DNA from: Octopus vulgaris
Lineage: Eukaryota
NCBI GenBank assembly: GCA_951406725.2
Contig: OX597815.1
Location: 55,800,001 to 55,864,000 of the forward strand
Direction of reading: 5' to 3'
Length of the DNA stretch: 64,000 bases
Positions within the stretch are counted from its first letter, which is position 1. Each line of letters begins with the position of its first letter. Under the pieces are notes generated by a model that was not told where the DNA came from, did no database searches, and saw only the letters and a program-made list of their open reading frames with translations. The position numbers and the translations under genes are program-made. Below, piece after piece: positions 58,623 through 59,441 of the stretch.

Positions 58623-59441
58623 TTTCCCTCTATACCTGCGTGAATTATTTTTGTGTATACATTGTCTGGGAGACTTTTCTTATAGTAGAGGAAATAGCTA
58701 AAATTTTTTGGCTGCTATTTCTAAAAGTTCGGTGTGTGGTAAAGTAAATTATGTTACTGAACCCTAATTATATAACGTAATGTTTTAAATATACCGTAAA
58801 TGGTCTTTTTACATACTGAACACTACTTGGTAAAATTATTAATTAATAATTAATTAATTTTACCCTTTTATTATTGACAATATAATTCTCTCTCACTGAT
58901 AATAAACAACAGACCCCTCTGTAGGGACTTGTTGCTCTATAACTCACGTGGGTGGACGAGGGAGGATACAAAGCCTCATTCGTACTTTTTGAATTCGTTA
59001 GTACTAGCGGTCGAAGATGGTTTGTCTGGGATTACTTATATCAGACGGGTATGTTCGATTTTTAGTGCTCTCAAATTCAAACGTAAAGAAATCTTGGGCT
59101 GATGACGGAAATGTTGATCTCTATATCCAACTAATCCAGAAACGGCGTTCTCAAATAATCGATGTACGTGTGATCTTTCGTTATGTTTCCCTCTATACCT
59201 ACGTGAATTATTTTCGAGTATACATTGTCTGGGAGACTTTTCTTATAGTAGAGGAAATAGCTAAAATTTTTTGGCTGCTATTTCTAAAAGTTCGGTGTGT
59301 GGTAAAGTAAATTATTTTACTGAAGCCTAATTATATAACGTAATGTTTTAAATATACCGTAAATGGCATTTTTACATACTGAACACTACTTGGTAAAATT
59401 ATCAATTAATAATTAATCAATGTTGCCCTTTTATTATTGAC
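58623..59441 (+). mobile_element. Retrozyme/PLE-like partial tandem (563 nt period, ~256 bp direct repeats) with an HHR
   Basis: 58623-58878 is closely similar to 59186-59441; the HHR lies between them; microsatellites flank both sides. Confidence 0.75.
59094..59154 (+). ncRNA. Type I hammerhead ribozyme
   Basis: Stem I ttggg/ctcaa, CTGATGA, stem II (c)gga/tcc(a), GAAAC-ggc-GTT. Confidence 0.7.

Follow-up and report, generated by a model that had tools for sequence, protein, structure and literature searches.

The 819-nt locus at 58623-59441 of the window, i.e., of the whole 64-kb stretch of Octopus vulgaris DNA analysed here, is a copy of an abundant non-coding family and probably represents a non-autonomous retroelement that is copied by a Penelope-like reverse transcriptase (RT)/GIY-YIG protein. 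The locus exhibits a truncated copy ahead of a full unit, the family has a fixed 3' end with 5' truncation, visible both as polar depth and as 3' loose ends, and the insertion lies in AT-rich or microsatellite DNA with no clear target duplication. Of the two origins offered in the original prediction, a pseudo-LTR partial tandem of a Penelope-like element (PLE) is the better supported, whereas the variable permutation that goes with rolling-circle reverse transcription is contradicted by the fixed 3' end. The window itself is microsatellite-rich animal DNA with remnants of LINE RT.

Layout of the locus and abundance of the family

The direct repeats of ~256 bp with a 563 nt period, noticed earlier as a 1.45-mer, were recovered as two repeats of 256 nt each, A1 and A2, which differ by 11 mismatches (95.7% identity) at a spacing of 563. 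They enclose the 307-nt segment B with the single hammerhead motif inside it. The unit, B followed by A, measures 563 nt and is low in GC (34%), and the element of 819 nt amounts to 1.45 units. B had been described as a unique segment, which holds within the window, where it is single, but not beyond it, as B belongs to a multi-copy family. The features of the locus are as follows:

58513..58622, no strand: left flank, (TA)n and then (TG)n microsatellite
58623..58878, + strand: A1, pseudo-LTR-like partial copy on the upstream side, corresponding to the 3'-terminal 256 nt of the unit
58829..58864, + strand: AT-rich palindrome (predicted hairpin) shortly ahead of the 3' terminus of A, with an ATT-like tail after it; the A2 version has decayed
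58879..59185, + strand: B, 307-nt 5' part of the unit; once in the window, multi-copy in the family
58939..58965, + strand: predicted long-range partner of the first ~26 nt of A, with pair probabilities up to 1.0
58988..59081, + strand: predicted long imperfect hairpin; variants at 59000, 59006, 59009, and 59078 keep the stem pairing
59094..59154, + strand: type I hammerhead motif, with helix I 59094-98/59150-54 (5 bp), core 59099-59105, helix II 59107-59137, GAAA 59139-42, and helix III 59142-48; predicted cut after 59149
59150..59185, + strand: leader of 36 nt from the predicted cut to the start of A; diverged versions stand ahead of A in other copies
59186..59441, + strand: A2, downstream copy, whose terminus is the fixed 3' end of the family
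59442..59503, no strand: right flank, (TA)n microsatellite

No target duplication is discernible at the flanks of the 819-nt element, and the (TA)n of the right flank is likely the insertion target. At every listed polymorphic site of A (12 of 12), A1 agrees with A2, which fits both having been written from one template.

Part of the element was contained in 20 of the 24 listed runs (four organism labels; top share 0.49), and four runs (X1, X4, X7, and X11; three organism labels) were aligned to a permuted monomer, 58723-59285, chosen so that both ends of A lie internal. Contigs were taken at an identity threshold of 80%, so depth drops where copies diverge below 80%, and in all coverage figures depth means summed contig depth, not copy number. 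The unit was covered by 1163 contigs in X1, 1226 in X4, 707 in X7, and 186 in X11, mostly <99% alike, with 30 of 30 bins covered in each of these runs. None of the runs that contain the element is recorded as RNA; the profile of X11, which is guessed to be an RNA run, mirrors the DNA and speaks neither for nor against expression or a circle. Exact motif scans gave 0 matches in metagenome_contigs and viral_contigs, as expected for an animal repeat.

The outcome that was named earlier as adverse to a mobile family, a unique locus made by simple local tandem duplication, did not materialize, as each of the 4 runs aligned contains the full unit in multiple copies. A local duplication with a chance motif would accord with all listed polymorphic bases being common to A1 and A2 and with Rfam being blind to the motif. 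It is scarcely credible in view of the multi-copy unit, the junction-like sequence found in other copies, and the absence of a motif of equal quality from 5000 dinucleotide shuffles of the unit, the descriptor for which was written after the motif had been seen. With a looser helix I, such motifs appeared in 1/5000 shuffles at >=4 bp and in 4/5000 at >=3 bp.

The coverage is polar. The median depth of the 13 A bins over that of the 15 B bins (two boundary bins excluded) was 8.0 in X1, 13.8 in X4, 8.3 in X7, and 8.9 in X11. At the 3' end of A (in A1 coordinates), the X1 depth fell from 29,848 at 58837-58855 to 1,126 at 58894-58912, and beyond the A-to-B junction, the first complete bin held 1.8-3.3% of the A depth in X1, X4, and X7 and 0.7% in X11, although this copy is unlike most others at 58895-58928, which lowers capture at that stretch. 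Across the four runs, the bin upstream of A (59160-59178) exceeded the first complete one downstream of it (58894-58912) ~7-26x in depth, and such an excess of the B-to-A side over the A-to-B side fits 5'-truncated retrocopies and would not fit an LTR element. In place of the variable permutation suggested at the outset, coverage gives a fixed 3' end at the terminus of A; the copies fit 5'-truncated retrocopies that share this end and not random permutations of a circle.

The same profile bears on an LTR-like miniature, an animal counterpart of the plant LTR retrozymes in which A would be the terminal repeat and the abundant A would be solo repeats. The A-B-A geometry, the 8-14x deeper coverage of A than of B, and the steep coverage change near both ends of A are what it predicts, but it also predicts parity of the two junctions and requires a type III hammerhead inside the terminal repeat, where we found the ~7-26x imbalance and a type I motif outside A. 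Moreover, TG...CA ends are missing (A is not preceded by TG, because >99% of depth has T at 59185), and target duplication is absent, which leaves this origin very improbable.

The view that the locus has no credible ORF is borne out. The sole long ORF, a 97-aa ATG frame at 59017-59310 (20 of 2000 shuffles had one as long), was rejected as a gene on a stop created by the family-majority base at 59215, on the non-coding pattern of its 15 variants (11 non-synonymous, 3 synonymous, 1 stop), and on the absence of relatives, with no Pfam match and no protein match.

The hammerhead motif and the RNA fold

A single hammerhead had been placed about 30 nt upstream of the second repeat; the motif is present, but the distance is 36 nt, with the predicted cut after 59149 lying ~290 nt upstream of the 3' end. 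The motif has the core CUGAUGA, a helix III of 2 bp with a 3-nt loop, and a GUU triplet ahead of the predicted cut. Its helix II is long and interrupted and has a non-standard foot, where C59106 stands opposite A59138, an additional A inserted between GAAA and the G-C pair that closes helix II. Position 59106 is a variable unpaired base after A9, with another base in 22-58% of depth. A59138 is absent from the 40 of 103 variant rows and the 12 of 14 indel rows listed, and none of the same 40 of 103 variant rows holds a core-box variant; record 16 of X11 spans 59074-59165 with 3 differences. The strand of helix III is near-palindromic (self-pairing -6.4 kcal/mol), and a one-base insertion that turns it into a perfect palindrome occurs in one contig each of X4 and X7. 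In passages of PMC4209133, type I hammerheads are described together with PLEs, and PLE hammerheads, with their extra base after A9 and near-palindromic helix III, are considered to function as dimers. The predicted helix III is of this dimer type, and a locus with a lone copy could then not release a circle.

The hammerhead may also be dead, as the mismatch at the foot of helix II, the low pairing of helix I, and the missing Rfam match would suggest. In the folded unit the pair probabilities were 0.02-0.08 for helix I and 0.01 for helix III. Rfam gave 0 matches at gathering across the whole 64-kb window, and of the 42 matches in 58600-59900 with E no higher than 10, none belongs to a hammerhead family. 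The passages of PMC6155905 on hand contain nothing on the helix II variant. Since 8 of 9 tested frog elements were without cleavage in the part of Li et al. available (bioRxiv 10.64898/2026.07.22.740005), a predicted motif is a weak sign of activity.

The folding of the unit compared with shuffles gave z-scores of -5.0 and -4.8 for the linear and -3.9 for the circular form, and A or B folded alone gave -1.9 to -2.5. The circular value is not specific, because the circle of the - strand folds nearly as well (z -3.7). In the circular fold the helix system is continuous over the B-to-A boundary. Variants at 58959 and 58965 keep the pairing of 58939..58965 with the start of A, whereas a variant at 58958 breaks it.

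On the predicted + fold, pair-breaking changes make up 8 of the 40 listed variants (of 103), against 15.4 +/- 2.4 expected (P 0.002), while 22/40 are unpaired and 10/40 are pair-keeping (10.3 expected). As the pair-keeping count equals expectation, no compensatory covariation is shown by these variants, and the constraint signal is the shortage of pair-breaking changes. The mean folding-energy change of the listed variants was -0.35 vs +0.67 kcal/mol expected. An ensemble version gave 8.05 pair breaks vs 15.43 expected on the + strand (P 0.0001) and 13.14 vs 16.70 on the - strand (P 0.059, or 0.022 with a local null), and after thinning of linked sites the median P was 0.002 on + and 0.028 on -. 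The constraint was present separately in A (14 variants, P 0.003) and in B (26 variants, P 0.004) and persisted without CpG-type changes (n=36). The modelled RNA fold thus appears to be conserved in the family. The differences between A1 and A2 do not spare it, with 6 of 11 losing a pair of probability >0.5, as expected for decay following insertion.

Constraint in both A and B, the circular z of -3.9, and the helices running on over the B-to-A boundary would also agree with a non-LTR retrozyme, whose tandem RNA would be cut at two hammerheads and ligated to a 563-nt circle, round which a borrowed RT would run 1.45 times. With priming from a single AT-rich site, such a circle would yield the same product as a linear head-to-tail template. 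One circular template could account for the common bases of A1 and A2 at 12/12 polymorphic sites, and circles are documented in mussel, coral, and axolotl in passages of PMC7229834. We nevertheless regard this origin, the strongest of the alternatives, as unlikely: variable permutation is absent, the locus has a single hammerhead, and the 1.8-3.3% of A depth found past A-to-B in X1, X4, and X7 makes long arrays a minority. Moreover, the - strand (z -3.7) renders the circular z-score unspecific, and 563 nt exceeds the 170-400 nt given for invertebrates in those passages of PMC7229834, though it is within the 51-972 bp of the part of bioRxiv 10.64898/2026.07.22.740005 available.

Ends of copies and a probable Penelope-like mode of copying

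The ends and junctions described here are those among the 24 of 420 loose ends and the 32 of 3368 contig pieces that were listed, as the variants above are those in the 40 of 103 variant rows listed; the selection of rows and loose ends was made by the software. Within these 24 of 420 loose ends, 3' ends fall at 58868-58884, where a PLE-type tail of 30-40 bp was sought. Loose ends lead into ATT/TA repeats in two runs, in X7 past 58868 (14 contigs) and in X11 past 58884 (2 contigs). In X4, 23 loose ends past 58868 give a consensus that enters B-like sequence for ~11 nt, and two records distinct from this locus, X4-17 and X11-12, continue 14 nt into B past A. None of the 32 of 3368 pieces listed bridges the A-to-B junction with 31 letters on both sides, whereas X4-24 and X7-30 bridge the B-to-A junction; with moderate confidence, a minority of copies read from A into B. 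The full unit is spanned by no contig in the list. Strand-switching joints are represented by 6 of 11 in the list, each by one contig per run at the 80% threshold, and 2 of them occur in both X1 and X4. The 819-nt locus itself has no adjacent inverted copy. Elsewhere in the window, relatives of the 3' end of A stand next to microsatellites:

7585..7633, + strand: first relative of the A 3' end, 49 nt, between (TA)n and (ATT)n; E 2e-5, AT-rich
8275..8323, + strand: second relative, 49 nt, followed by (ATT)n
8403..8451, + strand: third relative, 49 nt, followed by (ATT)n

An insertion of ~550 nt splits this run of 49-nt relatives (7585-8451); it occupies 7665-8214 and shows what looks like a target duplication.

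Passages of PMC8557442 describe PLE insertions as 5'-truncated partial tandems with a bias toward microsatellites, frequently beside an inverted copy, and with (TA)n targets that show no visible target duplication. For the purified protein of a Poseidon PLE, cleavage at ATT and priming at fixed internal sites of uncut RNA are described in vitro in the part of PMC11167929 available, and animal retrozymes are proposed as non-autonomous PLE derivatives in portions of PMC7229834 and bioRxiv 10.64898/2026.07.22.740005. By analogy, the strand-switching joints, the variable base after A9, and the near-palindromic helix III of the family would fit PLE-type marks. Neither A nor B is linked by sequence to an RT gene or to PLE remnants within the window.

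Under a PLE-borrowing mechanism, + strand transcription of tandem or partial-tandem loci would give an RNA whose fold is conserved, the borrowed protein would nick AT-rich DNA, and reverse transcription would start at a fixed site, the end of A. Most events would stop within ~290 nt, in A or the leader, so that the new copies comprise A alone or less, and a minority would continue past the uncut hammerhead, across B, and into the A that precedes it, giving a 1.45-mer like this one. A1 and A2 would then have been written in one event and have decayed independently since. Efficient cutting would need a dimer of the hammerhead, in RNA that holds two copies, so this locus alone would release no monomer or circle.

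The ATT-like tail would fit a LINE partner too. A SINE-like element moved by a LINE of the R4/Dong or RTE type would have A as its common 3' tail and a 5' end trimmed by the hammerhead, and the 1.45-mer would be a template switch or a nested insertion. The tail, the 5' truncation, the LINE RT remnants in the window, and the recent activity of Dong-R4 and RTE in Octopus vulgaris (passages of PMC13282606) are in keeping with this origin, but we saw no target duplication and no tRNA-like head, with ARAGORN finding 0 tRNA genes in the window and Rfam 0 matches at gathering, searches that can miss decayed heads. Type I hammerheads, moreover, are described with PLEs, and the recurring head-to-tail junction and the strand-switch joints suit PLEs better, so we judge the SINE-like origin improbable and retain the PLE-type protein as the more plausible source of the copying machinery.

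The depth of X4 climbs past the predicted cut, from 2,131 at 59106 to 7,924 at 59155, 14,793 at 59185, and 67,338 at 59215. Upstream of 59186 and 59194 the loose ends look much like a leader that has diverged, and sister families, not truncation, therefore account for some of the excess of A; a clean 5' boundary at 59186 was dropped for the same reason. In X1, a depth of ~38,500 at both 59194 and 59221, with variants common to both, is probably one short tandem derivative. A loose end of X1 behind 59224 returns to leader-like sequence, possibly a minisatellite of ~70 nt made from the leader and the start of A. No sites where many molecules begin or end are listed for the four runs aligned. Given the sister families, the X1 derivative, and the lack of a listed start site, an accumulation of 5' ends close to the cut can be taken as a hint and no more.

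We hypothesize, with considerable doubt, that a cut by the dimeric hammerhead in vivo, its additional A at the helix II foot notwithstanding, sets the 5' end of the RNA behind most genomic copies; the model draws on the steep climb in coverage over the 70 nt past the predicted cut and on the 5' end of the locus, 36 nt downstream of it. If this were true, the genome would preserve in this family the traces of hammerhead activity during Penelope-type transposition, in which cut RNA would give short dead copies, uncut or circular RNA would give self-renewing 1.45-mers, and the carrier would be a viroid-sized RNA with its whole fold under selection. The role of PLE hammerheads is called unclear in passages of PMC8557442, and hammerhead cleavage was dispensable for a PLE in vitro in the sections of PMC11167929 available. 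In a family of this abundance, whose 3' end is fixed and whose predicted cut lies 290 nt upstream of it, the role of the hammerhead could be read from where the 5' ends fall.

Known systems and other elements in the window

The comparisons that follow refer to portions of the sources named. With the metazoan non-LTR retrozymes (PMC7229834; bioRxiv 10.64898/2026.07.22.740005), the family has in common a non-coding, low-GC, self-paired sequence with a type I hammerhead, the head-to-tail arrangement, and the presence of PLEs within the same genome; unlike them, it has a unit of 563 nt, mostly sub-unit copies by coverage, and the non-standard helix II foot. It also fails the definition of an active retrozyme in the portion of Li et al. 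available, two consecutive units with full motifs, because the locus has one hammerhead. The PLE pseudo-LTR tandems (PMC8557442; PMC11167929) likewise show a truncated copy and then a full unit, polar truncation, a (TA)n target without visible duplication, and a hammerhead upstream of a fixed 3' end, and the candidate strand-switch joints of the family would be a further match. In contrast to PLEs, the 563-nt unit has no ORF, and its predicted cut lies ~290 nt from the 3' end vs ~90 nt in the anole element. The minimal or dimeric PLE hammerheads of PMC4209133 share the helix I of 5 bp, the extra base after position 9, the tiny helix III, and the predicted dependence on dimers, but not the extra A between the helix II G-C pair and GAAA or the long interrupted helix II. 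Plant LTR retrozymes have the same repeat-spacer-repeat order with a hammerhead and no ORF, but here the hammerhead is of type I and not III, the ribozyme lies outside the repeat, and LTR ends and target duplication are missing.

In the literature listings on hammerheads, retrozymes, and Penelope elements of octopus or cephalopods, no description of such a family came up, and the passages of the 2026 Octopus vulgaris repeat annotation (PMC13282606) do not mention ribozymes. The present one adds a family with a larger unit and a variant hammerhead to a class described in corals, mussels, amphibians, and fishes.

The window contains a second hammerhead element at 19030-19540, with its core at 19260 and a terminal direct repeat of ~35 nt, which ends on (TA)n and folds at z -3.1; it has the same design as the 563-nt unit and a dissimilar sequence. 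The statement that the element at 19.0-19.5 kb is unrelated held in blastn, which found no similarity (best E 0.19). Small hammerhead motifs of the GUU type also occur at 5532, 22906, and 59841. Those at 5532 and 22906 are minimal and near-identical, the latter lying behind a remnant of a Penelope-type RT/GIY-YIG gene at 22030-22497 (39 RT-bearing or related matches, best 64% identity). The one at 59841 has the variant core CUGUGGA and belongs to a short end on the - strand, 59720-59860, which stops on (TA)n and sits 280 nt from the 819-nt element.

On the - strand, 21348-22079 is a stop-free frame of 243 aa that terminates in a GIY-YIG-like stretch at 21351-21530 (weak Pfam E 0.01), which had no significant match to P0001. 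The cysteines ahead of this stretch recall what we take to be a Neptune/Naiad-type linker, and the frame is a candidate remnant of a microsatellite-targeting PLE. A long near-perfect inverted repeat with two arms of ~95 nt (by eye) lies at 8545-8745. Behind a trinucleotide microsatellite, a frame of 106 aa at 16440-16760 recalls what is presumably the N-terminal part of an R4/Dong-type LINE. Adjacent LINE frames of 341 and 519 aa occupy 39678-42263 on the - strand; Pfam recognizes an RT domain in the 341-aa frame (E 2.6e-29), and this LINE looks fairly intact.
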